DNA of 64,000 nt from Candidatus Nomurabacteria bacterium (GCA_963832025.1 CAWHSF010000003.1:294606-358605); one strand, 5' to 3'. Shown: positions 3,915 through 63,649, counted from the stretch's first letter. Notes: a model not told the origin generated them from the letters alone. A program made the numbers and translations.

Positions 3915-3955
3915 TTCGACGAACTCACTACAAGTAAAAAATAATAATACTTAAA

Positions 3956-4012
3956 ATTGGGACGTCGGACACCTGCTTTAGCAGATGTCCGACGTCTGGA
4001 GGTTTATGCACT
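3956..4012. repeat. palindromic repeat family A, copy A2 (island left border)
   Basis: GACGTCGGACACCTGCTTTAGCAGATGTCCGACGTCTGGAGGTTTATGCAC. Confidence 0.8.
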
Positions 4013-4098
4013 TGTGTAATTTTGCATAAATGTTATAAATGCATTCATATAGTTCTATTCATTCTGGCTTCATAATCCACTCAGAGGAGTGTTACACC

Positions 4099-4290
4099 TT
4101 GAAAGAAAGTGCCACAGTACTTCGCAACAACAACCAAAAGGCGGCCGTTGCGGCCAAGGTGTTTAAGGGGGGCGTTCAAAAACCCCAAAGACAAGATGTT
4201 GCTGCTGACATTCGTCGGCAGTGGGGCAAACCGAGTCACAGCAAAAGTCGCAACTGGCGTTGGGGAGTGGCGCTGGCTGGCATTGCATAA
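4099..4290 (+). CDS. hypothetical small basic protein (~63 aa, TTG start after GAGGAG RBS); first cassette of S10-operon island
   Basis: RBS gaggag 8 nt upstream of TTG; preceded by TTGCAT-17-nt-TATAAA promoter-like unit; followed by hairpins 4296-4360. Confidence 0.25.
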   Translation: MKESATVLRNNNQKAAVAAKVFKGGVQKPQRQDVAADIRRQWGKPSHSKSRNWRWGVALAGIA

Positions 4291-4451
4291 ATAAAGACAG
4301 CCGGAGCTGTCTAAAGAAAGGAGGGAAGGGCGTCGGGATTAACTCGGCGCCCTCTTTACATTTACTTGCATTGTCATAAATAAATGTTATAAATAAAAAC
4401 GAATTCGTAATTAGTGAGCTACGGATAGTAGCTCGCTTTGGGAGAGAAGAA

Positions 4452-4649
4452 ATGGCCAACAGAGGTTCAGCAGTTTTACCGCATCGTAAGCAAGTGAAAA
4501 CCACCATGACAACCTTGCCCCGGCAAACACAGGAACCAGATGTTGTGGAAGAGATCATCGGTCGAGTTTTTCACGGCGGACACAAGCCACAACTTTATCC
4601 ACCCAATCCACGACAACAGCAAGCAGCCGAAGAATCTGCAGAAGAGTAG
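4452..4649 (+). CDS. hypothetical 65-aa protein (second island cassette)
   Basis: ATG preceded by GGGAGAG RBS, own promoter-like TTGCAT..TATAAAT at ~4368-4398, strong terminator 4663-4715. Confidence 0.35.
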   Translation: MANRGSAVLPHRKQVKTTMTTLPRQTQEPDVVEEIIGRVFHGGHKPQLYPPNPRQQQAAEESAEE

Positions 4650-4662
4650 ATCGAATTTCAAC

Positions 4663-4715
4663 GGGCGGGGAGTCGATGTTTCGACACCCCGCCCGCATTT
4701 GCGTTTACTCGATTT
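4663..4715 (+). terminator. intrinsic terminator after 65-aa ORF
   Basis: GGGCGGGGagtcgatgtttcgacaCCCCGCCC + T-rich tail. Confidence 0.6.
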
Positions 4716-4728
4716 TAATATTTTATTT

Positions 4729-4780
4729 CCAGACGTTGGACATCTGCTAAAGCAGGTGTCCAACGTCAGTCCAACGTCTC
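4729..4780. repeat. palindromic repeat family A, copy A3
   Basis: CCAGACGTTGGACATCTGCTAAAGCAGGTGTCCAACGTCagtCCAACGTCTC. Confidence 0.8.
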
Positions 4781-4929
4781 TTCACTTTTGTATTCTTGTG
4801 TTATATTTTTTGTATGGTATAAATATAAGTAGAACTAGTTCCTGCCGCCTAGCAGGGAGGCGGTACAACCTCAAAGCAAAAAAAACAAAGTGGATGCGTA
4901 AGCACACGTAAGCCATTGAGGGTCAGGTA

Positions 4930-5109
4930 ATGCAGAAAGAAGTAAACAAAAAAGCTGATTTGTCTACGACGCCTGTCGTCAAGGTTTCCAGTAGCATCGA
5001 ACCGGTTGGAGCAGCAGAAGCAGCAGGGACATACTGCATCGTGTTCGCTCCGCCGGAAAACCGGAAACCGCGGAACTTGATCGTGTACGACAATCGAGGC
5101 CACTACTAA
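4930..5109 (+). CDS. hypothetical 59-aa peptide MQKEVNKKADLSTTPVVKVSSSIEPVGAAEAAGTYCIVFAPPENRKPRNLIVYDNRGHY (below ORF-track cutoff)
   Basis: GAGGG RBS 8 nt upstream of ATG; upstream promoter-like TGgTATAAAT ~4803-4815 and 5'UTR hairpin; intrinsic terminator 5120-5176 immediately downstream. Confidence 0.45.
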   Translation: MQKEVNKKADLSTTPVVKVSSSIEPVGAAEAAGTYCIVFAPPENRKPRNLIVYDNRGHY

Positions 5110-5119
5110 AGTGGCCACA

Positions 5120-5176
5120 GGGGTTCATCGGCAAGCCAGCTGATGAACCCCACCGTTATTTTTACCCGATTTTTTA
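5120..5176 (+). terminator. intrinsic terminator after 59-aa peptide gene
   Basis: GGGGTTCATCggcaagccagctGATGAACCCC + TTATTTTTaccCGATTTTTT. Confidence 0.65.
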
Positions 5177-5195
5177 TAATTTTAAATTGCGAAAC

Positions 5196-5223
5196 TTGCT
5201 TTTATTTTAAAGTATGTTATACT
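5196..5223 (+). promoter_or_regulatory. sigma70-like promoter TTGCTT-16-TATACT driving candidate sRNA
   Basis: -35 5196-5201, -10 5218-5223. Confidence 0.4.
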
Positions 5224-5229
5224 TTATGG

Positions 5230-5420
5230 TAGATAGCTCCTCCGTGCTTTTTGTGGAGGCCTGTCTCCTGGCAATTCGTGAGTGGCTCCTCCACTCCTCA
5301 GGAGTTGAGCGCTTTGGCAACACTCTGCGGATGCTAGGTTGTAACATTGCTCCATTTTTCTATTCTCCTTGGGTCTGAATTCGGGTTTTGCCTCCCGTAA
5401 TATCAGACCCTATTTTTTTT
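5230..5420 (+). ncRNA. candidate ~190-nt structured sRNA of unknown family inside S10-operon island
   Basis: No ORF; own promoter; multiple nested hairpins (CCTCC/GGAGG, GAGTGG-ctcct-CCACTC, CCTG..CAGG); ends in GGGTCTGA...TCAGACCC stem plus T8 terminator 5371-5420. Confidence 0.4.
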
Positions 5421-5433
5421 ACCTAATTTTTAC

Positions 5434-5511
5434 TTGACCCGGTAGTAGAACTTTGCGATATGTAAAATTTGCATCAAAGATGCGTCGCAAAGTCTCACTA
5501 CTGGGTTGACT
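5434..5511. repeat. repeat family C copy C1 (long hairpin TTGACCCGGTAGTAG...CTACTGGGTTGAC; 3' end = -35 box)
   Basis: ttgacccggtagtagaactttgcgatatgtaaaatttgcatcaaagatgcgtcgcaaagtctcactactgggttgact. Confidence 0.8.
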
Positions 5512-5533
5512 TTTCAATACTTTGTGCTATGAT
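5506..5533 (+). promoter_or_regulatory. promoter TTGACT-16-TATGAT; -35 box contributed by 3' end of repeat C1
   Basis: -35 5506-5511, -10 5528-5533, followed by GGAG RBS and ATG 5556. Confidence 0.5.
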
Positions 5534-5555
5534 ATTAGAGAAGGAGATTTGCACC

Positions 5556-5792
5556 ATGTCGACCCAAGCAACAAAGGAGCGGGTTGGCCCGTTCCTCTTA
5601 ATCGGTTCCCTGTTTGCGGTGCCGATAGGTCTAGCGTTCTTTTACGAGGGTTTCAAAATCCAGGGAGACACATTACTGTCCCCGTCAAAGCTGACATGCT
5701 TTGTAGCTGGCGGGCTAATGGCTCTCTTCGGCATCATCTTTTGCTGGAGACACAACAACGACGGGAGGTTGGACAATGAAAGGTGGCGCTAG
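5556..5792 (+). CDS. small 2-TM membrane protein (78 aa), paralog of following ORFs
   Basis: GGAG RBS; two hydrophobic helices; internal similarity CFVAGGLMALFGIIFCW ~ FWVPGSLLALVGGIYLLY in next ORF. Confidence 0.5.
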   Translation: MSTQATKERVGPFLLIGSLFAVPIGLAFFYEGFKIQGDTLLSPSKLTCFVAGGLMALFGIIFCWRHNNDGRLDNERWR

Positions 5793-5976
5793 GAGGGGTA
5801 CTAGTTTCAACGTGGGTGCTGCAGTTGCGGCGGTGGCGCTCGCGATGGTAGTTTTCATCCACGACGATGCCGCCAAAAGCGCCCCTGACTTTATCGTCAG
5901 ATTTTGGGTGCCTGGTAGCCTCCTAGCTCTTGTGGGAGGAATCTACCTGCTCTACCGCCTCATCGTTCACAAGTGA
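5776..5976 (+). CDS. small 2-TM membrane protein (66 aa), overlaps previous ORF, paralogous
   Basis: RBS-like aggagg; hydrophobic; terminator 5990-6036 downstream. Confidence 0.45.
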   Translation: MKGGARRGTSFNVGAAVAAVALAMVVFIHDDAAKSAPDFIVRFWVPGSLLALVGGIYLLYRLIVHK

Positions 5977-5989
5977 TCGTTTTCACAGA

Positions 5990-6036
5990 CCGGTACCTGC
6001 GCAAAGACGCGGGGCCGGTTTTCGCTTTTTATTTAA
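5990..6036 (+). terminator. intrinsic terminator (repeat D copy 1)
   Basis: accggtacctgcgcaaagacgcggggccggttttcgctttttattt. Confidence 0.55.
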
Positions 6037-6039
6037 TTT

Positions 6040-6067
6040 GACTTTCTTGGATTTTATGCTATGATCT
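6040..6067 (+). promoter_or_regulatory. promoter TTGACT-16-TATGAT (near-copy of 5506 promoter incl. gaggagat RBS)
   Basis: -35 6040-6045, -10 6062-6067. Confidence 0.5.
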
Positions 6068-6083
6068 TCTTGAGGAGATCTTT

Positions 6084-6551
6084 ATGACAACAACAAGGTT
6101 CGGAGGTTCTCTCTGCATCGGTAGAGAGGAACTTGTAATAGCTGCGGTGTTTGTTACCATGGGCTTGGCCTGCCGTGTATCGACAAAAAGCAGTCGTGAA
6201 GCTGCCACAATGGTAATTGTGGTGGGGGTAGTCGCATTGTTAGCCTTACTATGGCAGGGGGTGAGAAAGGCCATTTCCTCCATTCTTCTCCCAACGTGGC
6301 GTGTGGTACCCAGGTTCGCAATCGCTTCGTGGAAGTTTGCGAGGAAGGGTCCGCGATACTGGATTCAGATTGCGGCGGTTGGGCTAATCTTCATCGGGGC
6401 TTTTGTCCTTGTGAGGTTGGATTTCAGCAAAGGAACGTCACTGGCGACGCTCCTTTCTCAAGTGTTAGCGAGCTTCTCTATACTTATTGGAGCGGGTTCG
6501 TACGTTTATTGTATAGGAGTGTTCAAGTTTCCAAACAGGTCCCAAGAGTAA
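6084..6551 (+). CDS. 4-TM membrane protein (155 aa), looks like tandem fusion of the 2-TM unit
   Basis: gaggagatctttATG RBS; 4 hydrophobic helices; terminator 6570-6617 is a copy of the 5990-6036 terminator. Confidence 0.55.
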   Translation: MTTTRFGGSLCIGREELVIAAVFVTMGLACRVSTKSSREAATMVIVVGVVALLALLWQGVRKAISSILLPTWRVVPRFAIASWKFARKGPRYWIQIAAVGLIFIGAFVLVRLDFSKGTSLATLLSQVLASFSILIGAGSYVYCIGVFKFPNRSQE

Positions 6552-6569
6552 ATCGTTTCGTTTCAATTC

Positions 6570-6617
6570 GACCGGCACCCGCGCAAAGACGTGGGGCCGG
6601 TCTTCGCTTTTTATTTT
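6570..6617 (+). terminator. intrinsic terminator (repeat D copy 2)
   Basis: accggcacccgcgcaaagacgtggggccggtcttcgctttttatttt, ~90% identical to 5990-6036. Confidence 0.55.
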
Positions 6618-6736
6618 GAATATGCTATGTTTCTCAGTAGGATAGTTCTTTTGGAGAGCGGTCTCCTGACAGGAACTATCTCGTGTGATAACGGGCTCTA
6701 AGCGTTTAAGCGCGTCCGTTACCACACATTCCGCAA

Positions 6737-6780
6737 CCGGGAGCCAGCTGCTTTTGGCAGGCTCCCGGTCTTTTTATTTT
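6737..6780 (+). terminator. intrinsic terminator closing the island
   Basis: ccgggagccagctgcttttggcaggctcccgg + T-run. Confidence 0.6.
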
Positions 6781-6839
6781 ACGTGAAAAAATGGTTTTTT
6801 TATTTCAGCTTTTCGGAATAAGGGCAATATAAAATCTAG

Positions 6840-6868
6840 TTGACAATTTTTCCTTATTTGCTACTATG
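6840..6868 (+). promoter_or_regulatory. internal promoter TTGACA-17-TACTAT re-initiating the r-protein operon at rpsS
   Basis: -35 6840-6845, -10 6863-6868, 28 nt upstream of rpsS ATG. Confidence 0.5.
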
Positions 6869-6896
6869 AAACCAAGCTCGTAGCGAGCTTTTTATT

Positions 6897-7247
6897 ATGA
6901 CTCGAAGTATCAAAAAAGGATTAAATGTCGACGAAAAACTTCTCTCAAAGATTGTGGGCAAAAACCCGCTCGAGACACCAATGGTAAAAACTTGGAAAAG
7001 AGCCTGCGTCATTTCTCCGGAGATGCTGGGTTTTACTTTTGGTGTGCATAATGGCAAAACCCATGTGGAAGTTTTGGTGACCGAAGATATGGTCGGGCAC
7101 AGACTCGGAGAATTTTCCCCAACCAAGAAATTTATTAAACACGGAGGAAAGATGCAGAAAGAGCTTGAACAGAAGAAAAAAGAAGCGGAGATTACTGCTG
7201 CCAAAGGTGCGACAGCGGCTGCCGAAGATGCTAAGGGTAAAAAGTAG
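6897..7247 (+). CDS. rpsS: 30S ribosomal protein S19 with ~25-aa Lys/Glu/Ala-rich C-terminal extension
   Basis: RSIKKGLNVDEKLL...HNGKTHVEVLVTEDMVGHRLGEFSPTKKF S19 signature. Confidence 0.93.
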   Translation: MTRSIKKGLNVDEKLLSKIVGKNPLETPMVKTWKRACVISPEMLGFTFGVHNGKTHVEVLVTEDMVGHRLGEFSPTKKFIKHGGKMQKELEQKKKEAEITAAKGATAAAEDAKGKK

Positions 7248-7369
7248 AAATGAATCCCGTACGAAATCGCGGACGCATAAAATAAACAAAAATATGAAAA
7301 AGATAAAATATATTATAAATAACAAAAAGGACAACGAAGCGTAAGCGTACGCGTCCTATTTCGTACGGG
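7246..7369. repeat. repeat family B copy B1 (~120 bp: GC-rich palindromic ends around A/T-rich core), ends exactly at rplV ATG
   Basis: CCCGTACGAAATCGCGGACGCATAAAATAAA...AAAAGGACAACGAaGCGTAAGCGTACGCGTCCTATTTCGTACGGG. Confidence 0.85.
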
Positions 7370-7762
7370 ATGAAAGCATTTTTAAAAAATTACAGACAAT
7401 CACCCAGAAAAGTTCGCTTAGTGGCGAGTTTGGTTAAAGGAAAAAGTGTGGCACAAGCGATTGCCGAGCTTGATTTTTTAGCAAAACGTTCAGGATTACC
7501 GATTAAGAAACTTTTACTTTCTGCAGTGGCCAATGCAAAACAAATGGGCATTGAAAGTGAAAATTTATTTATCAAAGAATTACGAGTAGACAAAGGAATT
7601 GTGATGAAGAGGATGATGCCTGCAGCCATGGGTACCGGACACCGCATCAATAAACGCACCAGCCACATCAATATTCTTTTGGCTGAAAAAGTTGTTGCTG
7701 TTCCAAAAACCAAGGTTGCCAAAGTTAAAAACACAAAAACTAAAAAAGTAGCAAAAAAATAA
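7370..7762 (+). CDS. rplV: 50S ribosomal protein L22 (C-terminal K-rich tail)
   Basis: SPRKVRLVASLVKGKSVAQAIAELDF L22 signature; ATG directly abuts repeat B1. Confidence 0.93.
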   Translation: MKAFLKNYRQSPRKVRLVASLVKGKSVAQAIAELDFLAKRSGLPIKKLLLSAVANAKQMGIESENLFIKELRVDKGIVMKRMMPAAMGTGHRINKRTSHINILLAEKVVAVPKTKVAKVKNTKTKKVAKK

Positions 7763-7777
7763 TTTTACAAAAACAAC

Positions 7778-8500
7778 ATGAGTAAAATAGTTCACCCATA
7801 TGCGCATAGATTGATAATATTAAGAGACTGGAAATCTCGCTGGTTTGCCGACCCTAAAAAATACGTGGCTTACTTGAAGGGTGATGTTTTGATTCGTGAA
7901 TATTTGACCAAGAAATTACGTGGAATGTATATTTCCACAATTGAAATCGAGAGAAGTAGAAAAGCTACTCGTTTCATTATCAAGACTTCTCGTCCGGGTA
8001 TGATTATTGGCCGAAACGGTGAAGGGGTAACAAAACTCAAGGAAGATATCTTGAAAAAGATGGACAAGTTGGGTATTCCAAAACCGGAAGACTTCAAACT
8101 GGAAATTGTGGAAATTACCAATCCCGAAGCCGATGCCGCAATCGTTGCTTACATGATTGCCGAAGGTTTGGAGAAGAGAATGCCTTATCGTCGCGTTATC
8201 AAACAAATTATTGAGAAAGTTATGCAAGCGCACGGAGTGGAAGGTGCGAGAATCGTGCTTTCGGGCCGTTTGGGTGGAGCGGAAATTGCCCGCACGGAAG
8301 AATTGAAGCGCGGAAGTGTTCCACTTCAAAGTTTCCGCGCGGATATCGATTTCAAACGTGAACGTGCAACGCTTTCTTATGGAGTTGTCGGTATCAAGGT
8401 TTGGATTTATCGCGGTAAAATTTTTGCTGACAAAAAACCTGCTCGTGGCATGGATGGCGGAGACGGAAGCTCATTAGAAAATAAAAATAAGACGGATTAA
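7778..8500 (+). CDS. rpsC: 30S ribosomal protein S3
   Basis: KIVHPYAHRLIILRDWKSRWFA...KH domain GMIIGRNGEGV. Confidence 0.95.
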   Translation: MSKIVHPYAHRLIILRDWKSRWFADPKKYVAYLKGDVLIREYLTKKLRGMYISTIEIERSRKATRFIIKTSRPGMIIGRNGEGVTKLKEDILKKMDKLGIPKPEDFKLEIVEITNPEADAAIVAYMIAEGLEKRMPYRRVIKQIIEKVMQAHGVEGARIVLSGRLGGAEIARTEELKRGSVPLQSFRADIDFKRERATLSYGVVGIKVWIYRGKIFADKKPARGMDGGDGSSLENKNKTD

Positions 8501-8503
8501 TAT

Positions 8504-8935
8504 ATGGCATTAGTACCGAAAAAAGTAAAATTTAGAAAATGGCAAACTGGGCGGAACAATCCGAAGTCCAGAAATCCAGAAACTCGTGGCACCAAGCTTG
8601 CTTTCGGTTCTTTCGGTTTAAAATCTGAAACTCAAGCGCGAGTAAAATCAAATCAACTTGAATCCGCTCGAAAAGTAATTTCGCGCACTTTAACTAAGAC
8701 CGGTAAATATTGGATTCGTGTGTTTCCGGACCGTCCTTATACCGCTAAGGCCGCAGAAGTAGGCATGGGAAAGGGAAAAGGAGACCCGCAAGGATATTGC
8801 TTTGATGTTCTTCCGGGTAGAATTATTTTTGAAGTGGATGGAGCGGAAGAAAAAGTTGCTCGCGAAGCGCTCCGAAAAGCAGGAACAAAACTTCCTGTTA
8901 AAACCAGAATTATTTCACGAGCTCACAAGCAATAA
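8504..8935 (+). CDS. rplP: 50S ribosomal protein L16
   Basis: MALVPKKVKFRKWQTGRN...GMGKGKGDPQGYCFDVLPGRIIFEV. Confidence 0.95.
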   Translation: MALVPKKVKFRKWQTGRNNPKSRNPETRGTKLAFGSFGLKSETQARVKSNQLESARKVISRTLTKTGKYWIRVFPDRPYTAKAAEVGMGKGKGDPQGYCFDVLPGRIIFEVDGAEEKVAREALRKAGTKLPVKTRIISRAHKQ

Positions 8936-8944
8936 ATTATACCT

Positions 8945-8972
8945 GTCCCGTACTAAATTTTTGATTACGGGG
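8945..8972. repeat. mini family-B-like hairpin (rplP-rpmC spacer)
   Basis: TCCCGTACtaaatttttgatTACGGGG. Confidence 0.45.
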
Positions 8973-9012
8973 CATAAAGATAAAGATTATTAATTAAAAT
9001 TTTAGTACTGGG

Positions 9013-9225
9013 ATGGTCAAAACAAGCAAAAACACAAAAAAAAGTTTTAAAGAAATGCCCGACACAGAGCTTAAAAAAGAGTTGGTTGTTTTGAAGGAAA
9101 ATTTACGAGTAATACATTTTAAATCTGAAGGTTCAAGACCAAAAAATGTTAAAGAAGCCACAACCTTAAAAAAACAAATTGCCCGCATCATGACGGAATT
9201 AAACAATAAAAAAGTAATAAAGTAA
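9013..9225 (+). CDS. rpmC: 50S ribosomal protein L29
   Basis: [21 protein letters not shown]29-like; synteny. Confidence 0.88.
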
Positions 9226-9229
9226 TTAT

Positions 9230-9541
9230 ATGAAAACAGACAAAGAACAAGAAAAAAAACCTGCCCGCAATACTTTCAGCATAGCTGATGCAGGCGGGGA
9301 AGATGAAGCCAAAGGCAAATTCCTAAAAGGAGTGGTTACTTCCGACAAGATGGATAAAACTGTCGTGGTTTCTGTTTCTCGTTTTGTGAAGCATCCTCTT
9401 TATGGAAAATTTTACAAAGTCAGCAAGAAATACAAAGCGCACGATGAAGGCAATATATATAAAACAGGCGATAAGGTAGAAATCATGGAAACCAAGCCGA
9501 TTTCTAAAGACAAAAGATTTAAAGTAATTTCCAAAGAATAA
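9230..9541 (+). CDS. rpsQ: 30S ribosomal protein S17
   Basis: [28 protein letters not shown]17 signature. Confidence 0.93.
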
Positions 9542-9546
9542 TTTTT

Positions 9547-9918
9547 ATGATTCAAAATGAAACTTTAGTAAAAATAACAGATAATGCCGGAGGCACCGTG
9601 GGAAAGGTGTTCAAAATTTTAGGCTCTTCAAAAAAGAGATATGCTACCCTTGGGGAAGTGGTAATCATCTCCGTTAAAGTGGCGAGCCCTCGAAAGGCGG
9701 TAAAAAAGAAAGATGTTCATCAAGCTGTTGTAGTACGCACTCGTGGAGCTTATCGCCGAAAAGACGGTTCATATATTCGTTTTGATGATAACGCTGTTGT
9801 GATTTTGGAAAAAGGTAAAAAAGATCCAAAGGCAGGTCGTGTTTTCGGACCGATTCCGAGAGAGTTGGCAGAAAAAGGTTTTCAAAAAATAATTTCGTTG
9901 GCGCAGGAAGTAATATAA
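9547..9918 (+). CDS. rplN: 50S ribosomal protein L14
   Basis: MIQNETLVKITDNAGG...VVVRTRGAYRRKDGSYIRFDDNA. Confidence 0.95.
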   Translation: MIQNETLVKITDNAGGTVGKVFKILGSSKKRYATLGEVVIISVKVASPRKAVKKKDVHQAVVVRTRGAYRRKDGSYIRFDDNAVVILEKGKKDPKAGRVFGPIPRELAEKGFQKIISLAQEVI

Positions 9919-9924
9919 TAAGAA

Positions 9925-9965
9925 CAGACGTTGGATATCTGCTAAAGCAGGTGTCCAACGTCTCC
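9925..9965. repeat. palindromic repeat family A, copy A4 (rplN-rplX spacer)
   Basis: CAGACGTTGGATATCTGCTAAAGCAGGTGTCCAACGTCTCC. Confidence 0.8.
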
Positions 9966-9978
9966 AAAAATAAATTTT

Positions 9979-10197
9979 ATGAAGATGAAAAAAAATGACA
10001 ATGTGAAGATAATTACGGGCAAGGACAAAGGTAAGTCCGGTAAAATTGTGCGTGTTTTGGTGAAAGAGAATAAAGTTGTGATTGAAGGTATCAATATGAT
10101 GAAAAAACACCAACGCCCACGAAAAACAGGGGAGAAGGGGTCTATGATGAATGTGGCCATGCCGATTCACGCTTCCAACGTTAAAAAGACAGAATAG
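9979..10197 (+). CDS. rplX: 50S ribosomal protein L24 (short form)
   Basis: KKNDNVKIITGKDKGKSGKIVRV KOW motif. Confidence 0.9.
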   Translation: MKMKKNDNVKIITGKDKGKSGKIVRVLVKENKVVIEGINMMKKHQRPRKTGEKGSMMNVAMPIHASNVKKTE

Positions 10198-10233
10198 TTC
10201 GACTTCGCTCACTATAAATAAATTTAAAAACAT

Positions 10234-10806
10234 ATGGCAACAAAACATTTAACCGTAAAAAACAAAGAACAAGAGGCATTTGAAAAAATGAAAAGTATGT
10301 TTCATTATAAAAATGCTATGGCTGCGCCAAAACTAAAAAAGGTTGTTGTAAATACTGGCACTGGCACACCGATGAAAAAAGATAAAAACAAAAATACTTC
10401 TATCGCGGAACGTTTAGCAAAAATTACCGGACAAAAAGGAGCACTCCGAGGCGCAAAACAATCCATTTCATCTTTCAAGGTTCGCCAAGGTGACCCAATC
10501 GGTATCGTGGTTACTATCCGTGGAAAGAGAATGTATGCATTCTTGGAAAAACTTATAAATGTGGCTATCCCTCGCACAAAAGATTTCAGAGGAATCAATC
10601 GCACCGCTGTGGACAATATCGGCAACCTGACTATCGGCATCAAAGAACACACCATCTTCCCGGAAACAGCCGATGAAGATATTCGCGATGTATTTGGCAT
10701 GTCTATCACTTTGGTTTCCACCGCAAAAAATAAAAAAGAAGGTACCGCATTTTTTGAAATTCTAGGTATTCCTTTCAAGAAGGAAGAAGTGATTAAGAAA
10801 AAATAG
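10234..10806 (+). CDS. rplE: 50S ribosomal protein L5
   Basis: RQGDPIGIVVTIRGKRMYAFLEKLINVAIPRTKDFRG L5 signature. Confidence 0.95.
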   Translation: MATKHLTVKNKEQEAFEKMKSMFHYKNAMAAPKLKKVVVNTGTGTPMKKDKNKNTSIAERLAKITGQKGALRGAKQSISSFKVRQGDPIGIVVTIRGKRMYAFLEKLINVAIPRTKDFRGINRTAVDNIGNLTIGIKEHTIFPETADEDIRDVFGMSITLVSTAKNKKEGTAFFEILGIPFKKEEVIKKK

Positions 10807-10887
10807 GGTTTGACCCGGGTAGTGAATTTTGGCGAAGCGCAAAGCGCAATAATAAATTATCGCCAAAATCTACTACCGGGTTTGACT
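10806..10887. repeat. repeat family C copy C2 (rplE-rpsN spacer)
   Basis: gggtttgacccgggtagtgaattttggcgaagcgcaaagcgcaat...atcgccaaaatctactaccgggtttgact. Confidence 0.8.
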
Positions 10888-10910
10888 AATTTCTATAAAC
10901 CTGCTAGTAT
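10882..10910 (+). promoter_or_regulatory. promoter TTGACT-17-TAGTAT; -35 box is 3' end of repeat C2
   Basis: -35 10882-10887, -10 10905-10910 upstream of rpsN. Confidence 0.4.
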
Positions 10911-11025
10911 CACAGCAAGGGAATAGGGCTTTGCTTAATCCATTTTTCTCCTCCGACGCTCTAAAGGGTTAGAGGTTCGGAGAAAAAAAATGAGATATTG
11001 GTAGAGTAACCCCGATAAATTATTT

Positions 11026-11211
11026 ATGGCAAAAACATCAGTCAAAGCAAGAGCGAGAAAGGTACCGAAATTTTCTACTCGACAAAAAAATCGATGTTTT
11101 CGTTGCGGACGAGGCAATGCTTTTATGCGTGACTTTGGCATTTGTCGTATCTGTTTCAGAGAATTAGCAAACGAAGGAATGATGCCTGGCGTTCGAAAGT
11201 CTTCTTGGTAG
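11026..11211 (+). CDS. rpsN: 30S ribosomal protein S14 type Z (zinc-binding)
   Basis: 61 aa, [23 protein letters not shown] Cys4 motif. Confidence 0.93.
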
Positions 11212-11212
11212 T

Positions 11213-11330
11213 CCCGAACGAAATCGCGGACGCATAAAATAAATAAAAACATGACAATGACAAAATATATTAAAAATAACAAAAAGGACAACGAGGTAAG
11301 CGTAAGCGTACGCGTCCTATTTCGTACGGG
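11213..11330. repeat. repeat family B copy B2, ends exactly at rpsH ATG
   Basis: ~85% identical to 7246-7369 including both ends. Confidence 0.85.
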
Positions 11331-11717
11331 ATGGATCCAATTTCAAATATGATAATCGTGATGAAGAATGGAAGCTTGGCAGGCCTAGAGTCTGTAACTT
11401 TTCCTTATTCCAAAATGAAAAATGCTATCGGCGAATGTCTAAAAAAAGAAGGCTATGTTTCCGAAGTTTCCAAAAAAGTAAAAAAAGGCATTCCGGTGTT
11501 GGAAATAAAATTAGTGTATACAGACAAAAAACCAAAAATTACCGAAGTGGAGAGAATTTCCAAACAATCCCGCCGTGTTTATTTTGGGATGAAAGACATT
11601 CATTCTGTCCGTAATGGCTCGGGTTTACTTGTGCTTTCAACACCGAAAGGAATTTTATCCGGTAAAGAAGCAAGGAAAGAACAGGTCGGAGGAGAAGCAT
11701 TGTTTAGGTTGTGGTAA
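11331..11717 (+). CDS. rpsH: 30S ribosomal protein S8
   Basis: MDPISNMIIVMKNG...LLVLSTPKGILSGKEA; ATG directly abuts repeat B2. Confidence 0.93.
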   Translation: MDPISNMIIVMKNGSLAGLESVTFPYSKMKNAIGECLKKEGYVSEVSKKVKKGIPVLEIKLVYTDKKPKITEVERISKQSRRVYFGMKDIHSVRNGSGLLVLSTPKGILSGKEARKEQVGGEALFRLW

Positions 11718-12263: not shown

Positions 12264-12304
12264 CCAGATGTTGGACATCCGCAGAGCGGGTGCACAACAT
12301 CTGA
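12264..12304. repeat. palindromic repeat family A, variant copy A5 (rplF-rplR spacer)
   Basis: CCAGATGTTGGACATCCGCagagCGGGTGCACAACATCTG. Confidence 0.6.
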
Positions 12305-13269: not shown

Positions 13270-13293
13270 ATTTATTCTTAATTTAAGAACATC

Positions 13294-28156: not shown

Positions 28157-28173
28157 CTCCGCTACAATATTTG

Positions 28174-28563
28174 GGGATGCAAGGCATAGACAGTTGGCCT
28201 ATTTGCATTGATGCATACCGAGTATGAACATAATCTCGTAAAAATTTGTTCAACAGCTAATTGCAAAATCAGCTTTTACAGCAATGCTTTCGCCTTACTT
28301 CGGTAATTCGTTAGCTCTTGCTCCAGCTTTCGCGTAAGCCAAGGTTGGTGTCTCTCGTATAGACTTCCGATATATACGTAGAGGCATAATATTATCGGGA
28401 TAGGGAAGAAGACCGCTCTGACTTTTTTCCAAAACAAAAGAGCTCGATTAAAAAATATTTGGCTCGTTTAAGAATTTTTTAATTTAAAACAAAAAGCGAG
28501 CTACGTATGTAGACTTCTCTGCTATAACCTTCTGCACTGGGATTCAATTTCCCACATCTCCAC
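28174..28563 (+). ncRNA. ssrA: tmRNA (transfer-messenger RNA), one-piece
   Basis: Adjacent to smpB; 5' GGGGAUG pairs with 3' CAUCUCC+A (G3:U wobble = Ala identity); T-arm UGGGA-UUCAAUU-UCCCA; PK1 region GAUGCAUACCGAG...CUCGUAAAAA resembles E. coli GGUGCAUGCCGAG...CUCGUAAAAA; candidate tag ORF GCA(28263)...SLALAPAFA-UAA(28337); -10 TACAAT at 28164. Confidence 0.75.
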
Positions 28564-28609
28564 AATTTTTTTATTTTACTACCATTGTTTTTGATGGTAT
28601 TATTTTAAT

Positions 28610-31178: not shown

Positions 31179-31252
31179 CCGTCCTTAGCTCAGCTGGTTA
31201 GAGCACAGAGCTTATACCTCTGGGGTCCTTGGTTCGAATCCAAGAGGACGGA
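31179..31252 (+). tRNA. tRNA with anticodon UAU (Ile2-type AUA decoder), C1:G72 acceptor end
   Basis: Cloverleaf: acceptor CCGUCCU/AGGACGG, D GCUC/GAGC, anticodon stem CAGAG/CUCUG loop CUUAUAC, T CUUGG-UUCGAAU-CCAAG. Confidence 0.75.
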
Positions 31253-31267
31253 CAAGCAAATAAATTT

Positions 31268-39192: not shown

Positions 39193-39263
39193 CCTCCAGA
39201 CGTTGGATTGACGTTGGACACCCGCCAAAGGCGGATGTCCAACGTCTGGAGGTTTATCCACAA
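39193..39263. repeat. palindromic repeat family A, extended copy A6
   Basis: CCTCCAGACGTTGGAttgacgTTGGACACCCGCCaaaGGCGGATGTCCAACGTCTGGAGGTTTATCCAC. Confidence 0.8.
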
Positions 39264-39277
39264 GTAAATTTAAAGTG

Positions 39278-39364
39278 CGGAGAGAGAGGGATTCGAACCC
39301 TCGGTCCTTTTAAGGGGACGACAGTTTAGTAAACTGTTGGTTTAAACCACTCACCCATCTCTCC
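39278..39364 (-). tRNA. type-II (long variable arm) tRNA, Ser-like, anticodon loop UUACUAA (apparent ACU anticodon, atypical)
   Basis: rc: GGAGAGA-UG-GGU..ACC-A-ACAGU-UUACUAA-ACUGU-long arm-CGAGGGUUCGAAUCCCUC-UCUCUCC-G. Confidence 0.6.
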
Positions 39365-49701: not shown

Positions 49702-50954
49702 TTTCCTAATGCATTATGGTAAACTTCCTCTAGTTTTTTTACACTCTCGTGTATATCATATTTTTGAACCATCTTGAAGCTAACCTCACCCATCCTCTCT
49801 CTCAATTCTTTGTCTTGAATTAATTTCAAAGTTTGCTCGGCTAGGTCTTTAGGATCCAAGGTTTTAAACAAAAATCCGTTGCCATTCACAAAATAACGGG
49901 AAGCGCTCATTTTTGTATCGGAAATAATAATCGGTTTTCCACAAGCCATCGCTTCAAGCACCACCATACCTTCCAGTTCCGCGAGCGACGGCAAAATAAA
50001 AATATCGCAGGCATTAAAAGCCAAGATTTTATCTTCTTCACTGACCAATCCTAAAAAGGTGATATGTTTTCGCATTTTTAGATTGTCCACTAATTTTTCT
50101 AATTTATTTCGCAAGATTCCACCGCCCGCAATCATTAGATACACATTAGGATTTACTTTGAGTATCTCTGGTATTGCTTTGATGAGTGTATCCACGGATT
50201 TTTCCGGGAACAGACGCCCGACGAAAAGCAATTTTATTTTATCTTTCGGTATTTCAAATCTTTCGTAAAAATTTCCAATTGGAAATTTCTGAAAATGTTT
50301 CAAATTTATTCCATTGCTGATGACAATCGATGGCTGGTCACGCTTGTTTAATTTATGTAGCAGATTTTTTGCCATTTCGGAGGGATAGATTATTATTTCT
50401 GCTTTACTGTAAACCCACATCAGATATTTGTTCCATAAGCTAAATAAAATGGGCTGAATAATATGGGGGGTGTCGGCAAATAAATTTTCCGGTTGCGAGT
50501 GCGAATGCGCCACGATTTTTATATGAAGTGCTCGCGCTGCTTTGATGGCGACAACCGCTCCCGACATTGGCAGAATAATATGCACGATGTTTATTTTTTC
50601 TTCCAGAAAAACTTTTTTTAATTCATTCACTGTCGGAAAGGCTAAATGCCAGCCGTTTGATTTAGGAATAGGAATACTGCGATAATGATAAAGCCTGATG
50701 CCATCGTAATAATCGTTGTTCGCGTGTTCCTTAGAGGTTGCTCCGACAAAAATGACATGATGTCCTTGTTCTTTTAATAATTTGGAAAATCGCAAAATAG
50801 ACACAAGCACTCCGGCTTTGTCTCCGCCAATCGGGTCGCAAATCATCGCGATATTCAATTTCCCGGTAGTAGATTTTTGCAATGCAAGTTTACTTGCGCG
50901 CTCTGCGCTTTGCGAAAACTCACTACCGGGTTTTCCTCTTTTTTCTTCAGGCAT
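49698..50954 (-). CDS. GT4-family glycosyltransferase
   Basis: EGMVVLEAMACGKPIIISD (EX7E motif), two Rossmann halves. Confidence 0.85.
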   Translation of the reverse strand: MPEEKRGKPGSEFSQSAERASKLALQKSTTGKLNIAMICDPIGGDKAGVLVSILRFSKLLKEQGHHVIFVGATSKEHANNDYYDGIRLYHYRSIPIPKSNGWHLAFPTVNELKKVFLEEKINIVHIILPMSGAVVAIKAARALHIKIVAHSHSQPENLFADTPHIIQPILFSLWNKYLMWVYSKAEIIIYPSEMAKNLLHKLNKRDQPSIVISNGINLKHFQKFPIGNFYERFEIPKDKIKLLFVGRLFPEKSVDTLIKAIPEILKVNPNVYLMIAGGGILRNKLEKLVDNLKMRKHITFLGLVSEEDKILAFNACDIFILPSLAELEGMVVLEAMACGKPIIISDTKMSASRYFVNGNGFLFKTLDPKDLAEQTLKLIQDKELRERMGEVSFKMVQKYDIHESVKKLEEVYHNALGK

Positions 50955-52263: not shown

Positions 52264-52378
52264 TGGTCCAGCTAGAGAACCGAAATTTCCAGCAGCGCAT
52301 CGGGCGAGATGTAGTGAATGTCTTGCCCACGAGCCCTGAAGCAGAAATCAGCTTTCAGGGTTTTTGTTTTGCCATTTT
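52264..52378 (+). terminator. ~115-bp direct repeat E1 containing two hairpins and T-run
   Basis: CGGGCAAGA..TCTTGCCC and CCCTGAAGC..GCTTTCAGGG+TTTTTGTTTT; near-identical to 53053-53168. Confidence 0.6.
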
Positions 52379-53052: not shown

Positions 53053-53168
53053 ACAAAGTCCAGCTGGAGACTTAGAAACATCTAGCACATCGGGCAAGAT
53101 GTAGTGAATGTCTTGCCCACGAGCCCTGAAGCAGAAATCAGCTTTCAGGGTTTTTGTTTTGCCATTTT
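53053..53168 (+). terminator. direct repeat E2 (copy of 52264-52378)
   Basis: same two hairpins + T-run. Confidence 0.6.
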
Positions 53169-56873: not shown

Positions 56874-56962
56874 TTAGATACGAGTCCCGTTAGAAATAAC
56901 GAAAACTTCTCAAGTAGGTTATAATAAATGAGTATTAATAATTAATATAAATTTCTAACGGG

Positions 56963-58706
56963 ATGAGTTTTTTAGAAGAATTAGCCAAAAAGGGTTTAAT
57001 AAATGGAAACCAAATAGGTGAAATTAAAAATCGCGCAAACGAAGATTTTGGTGGCGATATCGAGAAAACACTCATCGAATCCGGTGTTCCAGAAGAAAAA
57101 ATTCTTGAAACAAAAGGAGAATATTTGGGGTTGCCGGTCAAGCAAATAAATCTTCAAGGAATGTCTTTTGATGTATTGAAATATATTTCCGAAGATTCTG
57201 CTTCACATTATAATTTTGTGCCGATAGAGTTAAGAGATGGAGTGCTAGAAGTTGGAGTGATAGACCCGGAGAACATCCAAGCGATGGATGCTCTGCAATT
57301 TATTTCCAATAAAATAGGTATTCCTTTTAAAATTTTTCTTATTTCGAGGAGTGATTACGACAGTGTCATGCAGAGTTATAAAGGCTCGGCAGTCAAGTGG
57401 AGGAATCTTTAAAAGAAATAAAACAAGAAGAAAATGAAGACGTGAAAGGTGTGAACGAAGAGAGTCTTAGCAAGGAAATTAAAAATATAAAAACAAAAGA
57501 GGAGGCAAAAATTACTGAAGCTGCGCCAGTTATAAAAATTGTTGCGGTTATTTTGCGTAATGCTCTAGAAGGAGGTGCTTCGGATATACATATTGAATAT
57601 AATGGTGAAAAAGTAAAAGTGCGTTTTCGTGTGGATGGTATATTGCACACCTCTATCGTTTTACCATCAAATGTTTACAATGGAATCGTTGCTCGTATAA
57701 AAATTTTATCCAAACTTAGATTGGACGAAAAACGCAAACCGCAAGATGGTTCTTTCAGTGCCAACATTGATGATAGAAAAATTGATTTTCGTGTTTCCAC
57801 CATGCCGGCATATTATGGCGAGAAGATCGTGATGCGTATTTTGGATTCCGAAAAAGGTGTTAAACCACTGACCGAACTCGGTCTTTCCAAAGTAAATTTA
57901 GAAATTATAGAAGAGGCAATTAAAAAACCATACGGATTGATTTTGATTACTGGTCCGACCGGTTCCGGAAAATCCACTACACTTTATTCCATGATGAATG
58001 CGTTTAGATAAAGAAAAAAGTAATATCGTGTCGTTGGAAGACCCAATAGAATACCATATGTCGGACATCAACCAATCTCAAATGATGCCGGAAATTGGAT
58101 ATACTTTTGCTTCTGGACTTCGTTCAATTTTGCGTCAGGATCCGGATGTGATAATGGTGGGAGAGATCCGTGATAAAGAAACAGCTCAACTTGCCATTCA
58201 AGCAGCTTTGACCGGACACTTGGTGCTTTCCACTTTGCACACCAACTCTGCTGTCGGAGCTATTCCTCGCTTGGTGGATATGGGAGTTGACCCATACTTG
58301 ATTGCCCCAACGTTGATTGTTTCTATCGCGCAACGTCTCGCGAGACTTACTTGTCCATCGTCGAGAAAACTCATGCCGATGGATCCAACTATAAAAATTC
58401 AGATTGAAAAACAAATGGAAGATTTACCGGAACAATTTAAACCAGCAATCAGTAATGAAATGTATGACACGGTTCCATCCGGTGAATGTCCTTCCGGTAC
58501 GCGAGGTCGTATCGCAGTATTTGAAATGTTTAAAGTTGATAAAGAAATGCAAGGCAGTGATTTTAAAAAGTCCTGTGAACGGTGAAATTTACAAACTAGC
58601 TCGCAGTAAGGGAATGTTGATGATGAGAGAAGATGCAATGCTAAAATCATTACAGGGAATTATTCCTTTTACCGAAGTTTATAACTTTAACAACGAAAAT
58701 GAATAG
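56963..58706 (+). pseudogene. pilB: type IV pilus assembly ATPase PilB/GspE, fragmented into 4 ORFs by >=3 single-nt frameshifts (~57395, ~58000, ~58545)
   Basis: T2SSE_N domain, LILITGPTGSGKSTTLYSMM Walker [37 protein letters not shown] zinc motif; junctions in short homopolymers. Confidence 0.8.
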
Positions 58707-63643: not shown

Positions 63644-63649
63644 GATATT

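Follow-up and report, generated by a model that had tools for sequence, protein, structure and literature searches.

The repeats and their host genes

The window analysed here is a 64,000-nucleotide stretch of DNA from Candidatus Nomurabacteria bacterium. Two copies of a short repeat, called A and B, lie among its ribosomal protein genes, and a third member, copy C, lies further downstream. The relevant features are the following.

7250 to 7254, plus strand: upstream duplicate of the rplV start (ATGAA), identical to the 5 nt at 7370-7374
7250 to 7285, plus strand: uORF1 (MNPVRNRGRIK, then a stop), starting at the duplicated ATG and spanning the entire 5' arm
7255 to 7369, plus strand: copy A, miniature element between rpsS and rplV (covariance model 116 bits; 5' arm 7255-7276, 3' arm 7351-7369)
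7294 to 7344, plus strand: conserved 16-codon mini-ORF of the loop (MKKIKYIINNKKDNEA, then a stop), the stop 25 nt 5' of the rplV ATG
7370 to 7762, plus strand: rplV (L22), host of copy A (Pfam PF00237, E=6e-32, profile beginning at residue 5)
8944 to 9012, plus strand: weak mini relative in the rplP-rpmC spacer (covariance model E=0.94 only)
11212 to 11330, plus strand: copy B, between rpsN and rpsH (covariance model 103 bits; 5' arm 11212-11233, one mismatch, CCCGAACG; 3' arm 11312-11330)
11251 to 11352, plus strand: loop ORF of copy B (MTMTKYIKNNKKDNEVSVSVRVLFRTGWIQFQI, then a stop), crossing the rpsH start
11331 to 11717, plus strand: rpsH (S8), host of copy B (Pfam PF00410, E=2e-35, profile position 1 at residue 2)
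56885 to 56962, plus strand: copy C, 78-nt family member, TCCCGTTAGAAATAACG...AAATTTCTAACGGG (covariance model 41.7 bits, E=3e-9)
56963 to 57412, plus strand: host of copy C, a 149-aa MshEN-domain (PilB/GspE N-terminal-like) protein (Pfam PF05157, E=8e-12)

Copies A and B measure 115 and 119 nt, and the last base of each directly precedes the ATG of its host gene, as an earlier sequence-only reading of this DNA had noticed. That reading had begun copy A at 7246, which included flanking sequence, and had placed copy B at 11213-11330; its estimate of about 85% identity was too low, since the global identity over the whole element is 0.908 (92% over 83 nt and 90% over 50 nt, with one 4-nt indel). 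When the arms CCCGTACGAAATCGCGGACGC and GCGTCCTATTTCGTACGGG are searched with three mismatches allowed, only copies A and B are recovered in the 64 kb, for a chance expectation of 0.00-0.02. Translation starts of rplV and rpsH located further downstream are excluded by the positions at which the L22 and S8 profiles begin. The antisense ORFs 6945-7334 and 10935-11291, described as translations of the repeat, do begin with LSFLLF.IYF derived from it but are reverse-strand read-through over rpsS and rpsN, not genes. The coding content of the window copies is confined to ORFs of 11 and 16 codons, with no GIY-YIG domain.

At both start codons, the mRNA is predicted to fold into a 13+6-bp stem, with a dG of -35.4 kcal/mol for copy A and -35.6 kcal/mol for copy B (z-scores of -5.2 and -3.6, respectively). 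In copy A, the stem is lengthened into the AUG by the pairs A7254:U7371 and U7255:A7370. The proposal of a standby site is borne out only loosely by this fold, in which the stem would sequester the regenerated AUG instead of presenting it.

Copy B has no upstream ATG duplicate, and the TAG stop of rpsN (11209-11211) adjoins its 5' arm; the equivalent rpsN-rpsH site of a related genome, L153, carries a canonical ATGGA duplication. The loop ORF of copy B crosses the rpsH start because a 4-nt insertion shifts its frame. Copy C, which the sequence-only reading had missed, is also recovered by an arm scan at 0 mismatches, and the ACGAG just upstream of it (56880-56884) is a duplicated ATGAG that has decayed. 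The 28-bp mini version that had been reported between rplP and rpmC is indeed a weak relative, but one that corresponds to the whole 77-nt spacer. Its 3' end (...GTACTGGG) adjoins the rpmC ATG (9013), and its CCCGTAC is able to pair with a nearby TACGGGG or with the terminal GTACTGGG. Near-identical copies precede the starts of rpsQ, rplE, rplO and rpsN in relatives, and the element may tentatively be placed in the same start-codon repeat family.

A mobile family inserted at start codons

An exact-pattern scan of GTDB species genomes revealed at least 118 further loci, all those listed belonging to CPR/Patescibacteria. The resulting set of 121 copies was gathered with an exact 24-nt pattern, so that arm conservation within it holds by construction, and the copies are phylogenetically related, so that the counts below overstate the number of independent events. 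A start codon is directly abutted in 117 of the 121 copies (ATG in 108, GTG in 9), always in the orientation of the gene, and in 113 copies the ORF that follows has at least 60 codons or runs off the locus. The upstream flank repeats the ATG and the next 1-3 nt of the host gene, usually as ATGNR, in 102/121; most of the exact duplications span 5 nt (87 copies), the others 4 nt (8 copies) or 6 nt (7 copies). The duplication is decayed or absent in 15 others, and about 12% of the copies lack an upstream ATG. This variable length (0, 4, 5, 6 or 8 nt) is unusual for a fixed staggered cut. A purine occupies gene position +5 in 111/117 element-bearing genes versus 42/75 ORFs of the window.

The dozens of unrelated genes preceded by the element include topA, ssb, tpiA, murG and pilB; many of the targets elsewhere are translation genes. 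Copy A shares 95.7% identity with a copy located at a different gene in another genome.

The orthologous spacers were compared in 80 related operons whose RpsC proteins are 83-96% identical. Most rpsS-rplV junctions are empty (TAA-n-ATGAAAGC), as in L119 at 96% (TAAaaaaataatATGaaagc), and hold a single ATGAAAGC, whereas ATGAA stands on either side of copy A. The window, L177, L044, L153 and L158 carry the element at this junction together with a duplicated ATGAA, and the rpsN-rpsH junction is filled in the window and L153 only. Since the same site is either empty or filled with ATGAA duplicated among close relatives, the element is mobile. By this comparison, the ATG at 7250 is the original start codon of rplV, now opening a short ORF. 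The suggestion of a specific insertion site was therefore well founded, the site being the start codon itself, duplicated upon insertion. The census and the operon comparison show a family of elements, present or absent directly 5' of a start codon, co-oriented with the gene and flanked by a duplication of ATG plus about 2 nt.

The long form and its GIY-YIG nuclease

The termini, duplication and position of the miniature copies are shared by a long form of about 290 nt, found in genomes L067 (two) and L102, with none within the 64-kb window. The long form encodes a UPF0213-type GIY-YIG nuclease of 94-95 aa (Pfam PF01541, E=2.5e-17, 63 bits versus a cutoff of 22.6), whose closest solved structures are UPF0213/YhbQ proteins (COG2827, E=1.2e-8). 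The nuclease ORF uses the duplicated ATG of the host as its first codon and closes with a TGA that overlaps the regenerated ATG (ATGA). The inverted termini of the element themselves encode the N-terminus MNPVRD, to which the start of uORF1 is homologous, and the C-terminus RFLSLTG followed by the stop. Among 3281 nuclease homologues, the pattern MNPVR/MSPVR/MNPAR...(RFLSLTG|RFLALTG) was present in 13/13 full-length sequences read, and in several members the N-terminal region offers no further in-frame ATG. Six distinct full-length copies precede ruvX, a methyltransferase gene, smpB, a carboxypeptidase gene, a response regulator gene and an rmlD-like gene, all with a 4-nt overlap with the host gene and matching ATGNN on both sides.

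Because the long form has the same termini and duplication and encodes a nuclease, the window repeats are likely to be non-autonomous, MITE-like copies of a CPR/Patescibacteria mobile element family. The features of a MITE are found in them: they are short (115-119 nt), have terminal inverted repeats (13+6 bp) and encode no mobilising enzyme; the target duplication is exact in 102/121 copies of the family, with ATGAA on both sides of copy A and none at copy B; and empty and filled rpsS-rplV and rpsN-rpsH junctions coexist among the 80 operons. The long form is a candidate autonomous partner, its nuclease being linked to mobility by association only.

Proposed translation through the element

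Of the 64 copies of the GTTAG subtype, 40 have a loop free of stops in the uORF frame, versus 7 and 6 for the other frames, and 45 stops fall in the frame of the upstream ATG versus 119 and 107. The uORF terminates either 4 nt short of the host ATG or overlapping it. The AUG is partly within the stem, through U:A and R:U pairs, and the closing pair covaries from U:A (110 copies) to C:G (9), the latter yielding a GTG start. A -10 box peaks 6-7 nt 5' of the upstream ATG in 41/108 starts. The lack of a Shine-Dalgarno sequence, already remarked for rplV and rpsH, is real but not peculiar to these genes: such a motif was found in only 7/108 element-bearing starts, and its absence is normal in these organisms. 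The idea that the element carries translation-initiation information holds loosely, in that the original ATG of the host is reused, but no ribosome-binding signal is brought in.

In the window subtype (GAACG/GTACG), the long uORF is not maintained: it is cut short by an early stop, and a second mini-ORF is present. The position, length and stop of this mini-ORF are kept in 24/37 copies of the subtype of copy A, and in the mini-ORFs of exactly 16 codons (n=19) the entropy by codon position is 0.42/0.58/0.86, the third position being the most variable.

The short ORFs kept open from the upstream ATG suggest either translation-dependent unmasking of the host start or reinitiation. By inserting at the start codon and duplicating it, the element probably ensures that it and the host gene both remain translated. 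In the proposed mechanism, ribosomes would initiate at the original upstream ATG by means of the host's own signals; about 40% of the targets have a -10 box 6-7 nt upstream and look leaderless. On entering the 5' arm, the ribosome would disrupt the helix in which the A and U of the downstream AUG are paired, and initiation on the host gene would follow, either as reinitiation or with a second ribosome that binds the exposed AUG. Three variants of this coupling are needed in the window, because of the early stop and second mini-ORF, the missing upstream ATG of copy B and the ACG of copy C. In copy A, the 11-codon uORF (7250-7285) would be read first and the 16-codon mini-ORF next; in copy B, the ribosome terminating on rpsN would itself occupy the 5' arm.

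The combined proposition, that the nuclease is the mobility enzyme of long and miniature forms alike and that the element is tolerated because translation is preserved, has about an even chance of being correct. A broader reading, possible but somewhat less probable, would make this family a new prokaryotic transposon superfamily. Its sole mobility protein would be a bare UPF0213 GIY-YIG nuclease of about 95 aa, acting on hairpin termini inside its own coding sequence and inserting at ATGNR start codons; the ORF would borrow the initiation signals of the host, whose gene would stay expressed by ATGA termination-reinitiation, and the miniature copies would be translated hairpin cassettes on which rplV and rpsH expression depends.

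Alternative explanations

The alternative that survives best, though it is unlikely, is an ordinary selfish repeat of the MITE or REP type with an ATGNR target, the location at starts reflecting survivorship and the ORFs and AUG pairing being by-products. Terminal inverted repeats, target duplication, multiple copies and insertion polymorphism are all expected of such a repeat; covariation is no proof of an RNA structure, since terminal repeats that share a recognising enzyme covary as well, and the window's own subtype does not maintain an open uORF. Against it, the ATGNR sites of the window comprise 49 called starts and 86 intergenic non-starts, so that about 36% of the copies would be expected at starts if only intragenic insertions were lost, versus about 95% observed, and the orientation is 100% fixed. 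Stop depletion restricted to one frame in highly diverged loops, the placement of uORF stops at the host ATG and the third-position variability of the mini-ORF also argue against it.

A vertically inherited mRNA structure of the ribosomal protein operon, such as an autoregulatory leader or structured standby site bound by a ribosomal protein or the ribosome, is very improbable. The stable hairpin over the AUG of two ribosomal protein genes, the translation genes among the other targets and the stem covariation would suit it, but the same junctions are empty in the closest relatives, dozens of unrelated genes carry the element at their starts, part of the host gene is duplicated next to the element, and there is a long form that encodes a nuclease. 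No Rfam family matched at the gathering threshold across the window; a permissive search gave a single chance-level match, RefA9 (E=0.27, 21.6 bits versus a threshold of 49).

Marginally less probable still is removal or skipping at the RNA level, by cutting at the stem base and rejoining to a single AUGNN or by a ribosome hopping from AUG to AUG. A stable hairpin does lie between identical take-off and landing codons, and the original mRNA would be restored once the element and one duplicate were removed. Bypass (hop) elements have such matching codons, with a stop right after take-off and an untranslated insert. Here, unlike in T4 gene 60, no stop follows the upstream AUG, the frame through the element is preferentially open and encodes a real protein in the long form, the upstream ATG is lost in some copies, and no ribozyme or intron family was matched. 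An assembly artefact or collapsed repeat, in favour of which stands nothing beyond the window coming from an assembly, has a negligible probability, as more than 100 independent assemblies, produced by many projects, show the same architecture with different flanking genes.

Comparison with known systems

Like the bacterial MITEs Correia/CREE of Neisseria and MITEAba12, the element is short and multicopy, with hairpin-forming terminal repeats, target duplication and presence/absence polymorphism, and it shares its ends with a longer coding element from which it probably derives. It differs from them in its GIY-YIG parent, which replaces a DDE, HUH or serine/tyrosine transposase, in its start-codon target and fixed orientation, and in ends that lie inside a parent ORF begun at the duplicated host ATG. 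Free-standing GIY-YIG homing genes (phage T4 seg; intron-borne I-TevI) are likewise small, selfish nuclease genes, patchily distributed between conserved genes. They have, however, a DNA-binding domain and a long single-gene target, home into the same locus and lack inverted termini, target duplication and miniature derivatives, whereas the long-form protein is a bare domain. Although the catalytic domain is present, a homing endonuclease with one long specific site was rejected, as ATGNR is all that is shared by the different genes downstream of the six full-length and more than 100 miniature copies.

REP/BIME and IS200/IS605-derived repeats are palindromes of about 20-40 nt without target duplication, located 3' of a fixed tetra- or pentanucleotide and associated with a Y1/HUH partner; the variable duplicated target and GIY-YIG partner rule them out. 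Integron attC sites have the core order 5'-RYYYAAC ... GTTRRRY-3', lie 3' of the cassette ORF and are associated with IntI. Here the arms GTTAGAA...TTCTAAC are in reverse order, other subtypes read GTACG/GTATG and the element lies 5' of genes, so that attC was discarded.

The proposed mechanism, and that only, resembles ATGA-overlap coupling and ermC-type attenuation, in which an upstream-ORF ribosome opens a start-hiding helix or reinitiates at ATGA; the device here is portable and made by insertion, and, unlike in ermC-type attenuation, no evidence for a regulatory signal was found. T4 gene 60, the 'byp' elements of Magnusiomyces mitochondria and the Rickettsia palindromic elements are also mobile hairpin inserts tolerated by translation, byps having matching codons on both sides. 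Byps and Rickettsia elements sit inside ORFs and are skipped or translated in frame, respectively, whereas the present element sits at the start codon and is apparently read as a separate short ORF. A description of such an element was not found in the literature.

Significance

The UPF0213 proteins BH0048 (PDB 1ZG2) and EF2693 (1YWL), single-domain GIY-YIG proteins of about 95-107 aa like that of the long form, were deposited as hypothetical proteins, and no report of mobility is known to us for UPF0213/YhbQ proteins of this kind. If the proposed role is correct, this large uncharacterised family would acquire a mobility function and a testable substrate. This nuclease family is not known to drive transposition with terminal repeats and target duplication in prokaryotes, and it would be a new one for that process. 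In thousands of CPR genomes, the copies lengthen ribosomal protein operon spacers, yield spurious antisense ORFs, introduce short ORFs that are not annotated and displace the apparent starts of genes (GTG from the element's own end). They are also natural experiments in which Shine-Dalgarno-independent, leaderless and reinitiation-based translation can be studied, in hosts not yet growable alone. Finally, they illustrate one way in which selfish DNA persists in the most streamlined genomes known, by occupying and recreating the start codon of essential genes.

Copies at the start codons of rplV and rpsH

The region is a CPR-type ribosomal-protein operon with Pfam-confirmed genes, in which the rpsS-rplV and rpsN-rpsH spacers are both filled by an element that occurs a third time elsewhere in the window:

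6897-7247, S19 (Pfam)
7255-7369, copy A, filling the rpsS-rplV spacer
7370-7762, L22 (Pfam)
9013-9225, L29 (Pfam)
11026-11211, S14 (Pfam)
11212-11330, copy B, filling the rpsN-rpsH spacer
11331-11717, S8 (Pfam)
56885-56962, copy C, before an MshEN-domain gene (covariance model, E=3e-9)

The sequence-only reading had placed the 3' ends of copies A and B exactly at the ATGs of rplV and rpsH. This is borne out: the Pfam profiles of S8 and L22 begin at residues 2 and 5, respectively, and the ATGs touching the repeats are therefore the true ones. The kinship of the two copies is equally real, although the identity, first put at about 85%, amounts to 92% across 83 nt and 90% across 50 nt, with a single indel, of 4 nt (0.908 globally). 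The antisense ORFs reported across them exist as strings and are merely the reverse strand of the repeat, and a supposed 28-bp mini version between rplP and rpmC does correspond to a covariance model match, but a weak one.

The arms of copies A and B have no other match in the 64 kb at up to 3 mismatches, for a chance expectation of 0.00-0.02. Free-energy folding gives each copy an outer stem of 13 bp and an inner stem of 6 bp with an A-rich loop (dG -35.4 and -35.6 kcal/mol for A and B, z-scores -5.2 and -3.6 versus shuffles). ATGAA stands on either side of copy A, and a decayed duplicate, ACGAG, opposite ATGAG at copy C. Copy B is one of the exceptions, its 5' arm directly adjoining the rpsN stop TAG, a layout also present in L023, L044, L136/L152 and L198 (L-numbers designate loci from other genomes or metagenomes). 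No Rfam family matched the elements at the gathering threshold or in permissive mode, and ARAGORN made no tRNA-like call on them.

A family spread across CPR genomes

One genome per GTDB species was scanned with the inner-arm pattern AAATCGCGGACGC N60-90 GCGTCCTATTT. At least 118 stretches matched outside the window, and the matches listed all belong to Patescibacteria/CPR (Nomura-, Kaiser-, Wolfe- and Giovannonibacteria, Paceibacterota and others). The resulting set holds 121 copies, window included; these counts refer to sequences and not to independent insertions, and inner-arm conservation within the set is circular, since an exact pattern was used to collect it.

An ATG or GTG lies immediately 3' of 117 of the 121 copies (ATG 108, GTG 9), followed in 113 of these 117 by a reading frame that has 60 codons or more or runs off the locus, and all copies are co-directional with the gene. 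The targets are varied and largely housekeeping: many ribosomal proteins, topA (four genomes), ssb, typA, lepA, fusA, nusA, nusG, dnaX, recO, recR, tpiA, atpD, murG, aminoacyl-tRNA synthetases and pilB-like genes. The upstream flank is a copy of the gene start, extending over ATG+2 nt in 87 copies, ATG+1 nt in 8 and ATG+3 nt in 7; it is decayed (ACG, TTG, GTG, AAG) or missing in 15. While the 3' junction is constant (...GGG/ATG), the 5' junction varies, with 0, 4, 5, 6 or 8 nt of the gene repeated, which may reflect either the cutting pattern of an enzyme or selection. The base preceding the element is a purine in 115/117 copies, as is gene position +5 in 111/117, compared with 42/75 long ORFs of the window. 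No in-frame fusion occurs among the 23 copies whose upstream ATG is in the gene frame, a count that is not significant alone. In L010, L013 and L111, the remnant of an older 3' arm (…TTCTAACGG(G)A…) lies just 5' of an intact copy, which suggests recurrent insertion into a start codon regenerated by an earlier one.

Empty and filled alleles

The orthologous rpsS-rplV and rpsN-rpsH spacers, whose comparison had been proposed as a check, were retrieved by a metagenome scan with the RpsC of the window as query (80 operons, 83-96% identical), and both empty and filled alleles were found. Most of these operons, nearest relatives included, have a short, empty rpsS-rplV junction (TAAaaaaataatATGaaagc in L119, 96% identical; L121 likewise). 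Filled alleles occur in the window and in L177, L044, L153 and L158, each of the form TAA/TAG-n-ATGAA(element)ATGAAAGC, so that the filled allele equals the empty one plus the element and one extra ATGAA. The arms in L044, L153 and L158 differ from those of the window by paired changes (…GAAGCCGCGATCGC / GATCGCGATCTGCTTC…); the same site was thus taken by different subtypes. At rpsN-rpsH, the window and L153 have the only filled alleles among the operons compared, that of L153 with the canonical ATGGA duplication. Copy A is nearer to a copy preceding another gene in another genome (L031, 95.7% identical) than to its sister copy B.

A covariance model built from the 121 copies was applied to the window and to the loci selected by RpsC. 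It scores about 30 elements best on the operon strand, with weaker minus-strand matches at the same coordinates because the element is palindromic; with one exception, each is followed by an ORF of 37 codons or more, in most cases a recognisable ribosomal-protein gene. Judged from these alleles, the element is mobile. The targeting of a specific insertion site, one of two functions first suggested for it, is upheld: this site is the start codon, duplicated, at many genes.

A probable GIY-YIG parent

A search for unpaired arms brought to light versions of about 290 nt in L067 (two copies) and L102. Solitary arms bracketing a kilobase-scale transposase were considered and rejected, the long-range pairs being due to chance or neighbouring copies and the real long form measuring about 290 nt. 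Its ends are those of the miniature copies (ATGAA/TCCCGTTAGAGAT…ATCTCTAACGGG/ATGAA) and its interior is a single ORF (for example MNPVRDNNMCYVYVIRSLSSNYWYTGVTNDLRKRF…GKRYLKNRLKRFLSLTG, then a stop) encoding a GIY-YIG catalytic domain (Pfam, E=2.5e-17, 63 bits). Among solved structures, those of the 'hypothetical UPF0213' proteins BH0048 (1ZG2, E=1.2e-8) and EF2693 come closest. PHROGs holds no viral family for this nuclease, and NCBIfam gave only a sub-threshold match to a group-I-intron endonuclease.

A search of 5.8 billion proteins returned 3281 relatives, of which the best 120 are nearly all 85-96 aa long (outliers 99 and 107 aa), many from CPR genomes. All 13 full-length sequences read start with MNPVR (or MSPVR/MNPAR) and end with RFLSLTG or RFLALTG, which places the inverted termini inside the coding sequence; in the two shorter gene calls, the start is an internal Met. 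The nuclease ORF opens with the duplicated host ATG, and in several members no further ATG in this frame lies near the N-terminus. Flanks were retrieved for six distinct full-length copies, which lie before ruvX, a methyltransferase gene, smpB, a D-Ala-D-Ala carboxypeptidase gene, a response regulator gene and an rmlD-like gene, each overlapping the host gene by 4 nt (…ACG GGA TGA) and bordered on either side by an identical ATGNN. The copy in L208 has C…G as its end pair and a host gene starting with GTG.

In the miniature copies, the short ORF opened by the duplicated host ATG (the uORF, MNPVRNRGR…) is a remnant of the nuclease N-terminus, and one frame, closing with …VRVLFLTG and a stop, of its C-terminus. 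As termini and duplication are shared with the long form, the 115-nt copies are internally deleted derivatives of it. The repeats are thus very probably start-codon-inserted miniature derivatives of a GIY-YIG element. The 64-kb window contains no nuclease homologue, nor the related terminus CCCTGTTAAAT of the second GIY-YIG subtype, seen in L153.

The window copies conform to the structural definition of a MITE. Their parent is unlike known insertion sequences, being without a DDE, HUH or serine/tyrosine enzyme. It also differs from classical free-standing GIY-YIG homing endonuclease genes in lacking a long specific site, in its many target genes, and in its inverted termini, target duplication and miniature derivatives. 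An integron attC was rejected on core-site order, and IS200/IS605-type and REP readings on the presence of a variable target duplication. The full texts searched, all from outside subscription journals, describe no GIY-YIG element that inserts at start codons and no miniature form of one. Two papers touch on GIY-YIG genes of CPR bacteria in passing: the first notes such ORFs within insertions of rRNA genes that are not introns, and the second includes such genes in its list of those transferred horizontally.

Start codons as insertion sites

By a crude gene call of the window, 49 ATGNR sites are gene starts, 86 are intergenic without being starts, and 747 lie inside genes. Random insertion at ATGNR with loss of only the intragenic events would leave about 36% of copies at starts, against about 95% observed; the copies are non-independent and the gene call is rough, and the gap is large. 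The association with start codons exceeds survivorship.

Unrelated inserts occupy the exact rplV ATG, with a duplicated gene start, at the rpsS-rplV junction of L194, L165/L167, L157 and L175. That of L194 is another hairpin (TCCGCCAAAACTTTT...AAAAGTTTAGGTGG) with ATGAA on both flanks, and that of L165/L167 a 23-nt duplication, ATGAAAGCATTTTTAAAAAACTA. In these genomes, start codons may thus attract insertions in general.

Other repeats and features of the window

3915-6896, non-ribosomal insert of about 3 kb between rplB and rpsS, with promoter-like sites, several hairpin repeats and small doubtful ORFs
2757-2793, 3960-3996, 4731-4767, 9926-9962, 12265-12303, 39210-39246, second hairpin family, AGACGTTGGACAnCTGCT..AGCAGnTGTCCAACGTCT, in gene spacers
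5437-5506, 10815-10880, 50862-50930, third palindromic family, CCCGGTAGTAG...CTACTACCGGG
5988-6034 and 6570-6616, terminator-like 47-nt hairpin with a T-run, 91% identical
52294-52378 and 53084-53168, 85-nt repeat, 98% identical
63631-63699, hairpin TCCGGTTTTTTAAG...TACAAAACGGG
28173-28565, tmRNA gene (122 bits)
31179-31253, tRNA-Ile, anticodon TAT (ARAGORN)
39277-39364, tRNA-Ser, anticodon ACT (ARAGORN)

The rplB-rpsS distance is 105-1345 nt in relatives. The rplE-rpsN spacer, which holds one copy of the third family, is likewise enlarged (136-2905 nt in relatives), and in L153 it contains a GIY-YIG gene that differs in its termini (AACCCTGTTAAAT...ATTTAACAGGGT) and has an ATG of its own. The longest rplR ORF has its first 12 codons within the second-family copy at 12265, which makes the downstream ATG near 12316 the probable true start of rplR. 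A pilin-like ORF (MTLIELITVLAIFAV) has its ATG (63700) immediately after the hairpin at 63631-63699, whose end logic is that of the element (TCC...GGG/ATG), with two arm mismatches and the upstream duplicate absent. The two tRNA anticodons are unusual. No rpmD (L30) lies between rpsE and rplO (13270-13293), and rplO, at 100 aa, is short; CPR genomes typically lack L30, and the absence of rpmD fits such an origin.

Proposed translation across the element

The consensus stem reaches into the start codon. The first base of the element pairs with the A of AUG (U:A 110, C:G 9, U:G 2) and the last base of the upstream duplicate with its U (A:U 100, G:U 16), the excess of G:U over the A:C cell being dominated by the host base; selection acting on DNA terminal repeats would give the same covariation as selection acting on an RNA stem. 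Copies A and B show this pairing in their minimum-free-energy folds, and the regenerated start is thus partly sequestered. Nothing like a ribosome-binding site is supplied by the element. Of the structured standby site carrying initiation information that had been envisaged, the stem was found, without a binding-site-like signal and with the AUG partly sequestered.

The host gene keeps its original ATG, with the signals belonging to it, upstream of the element. A TANNNT box ends 5-9 nt before this upstream ATG in 41/108 copies, with a sharp peak at 6-7 nt and the extended TGn form in 23; the genes concerned are likely leaderless. Shine-Dalgarno-like motifs were seen in only 7/108. In the commonest subtype, with GTTAG arms (n=64), the highly diverged loop is stop-free in the upstream-ATG frame in 40 copies versus 7 and 6 in the other frames (45 stops versus 119 and 107), and the uORF ends with a TAA 4 nt before the host ATG or a TGA overlapping it. 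This open frame fits a need for ribosomes to read through the hairpin and then reinitiate. In the window subtype, the uORF is 11 codons long (7250-7285), enough to span the entire 5' arm, and a second ORF of 16 codons follows (7294-7344, MKKIKYIINNKKDNEA, then a stop), with the same position, length and stop in 24/37 copies; third codon positions are the most variable (entropy 0.42/0.58/0.86 in the 19 copies with exactly 16 codons).

In the translational model proposed for the working of the element as RNA, for and against which the balance is even, ribosomes would start at the original upstream ATG on the host's own signals, read through the hairpin and reinitiate at the host start; at copy B, the 5' arm would be covered by the very ribosome that terminates on rpsN.
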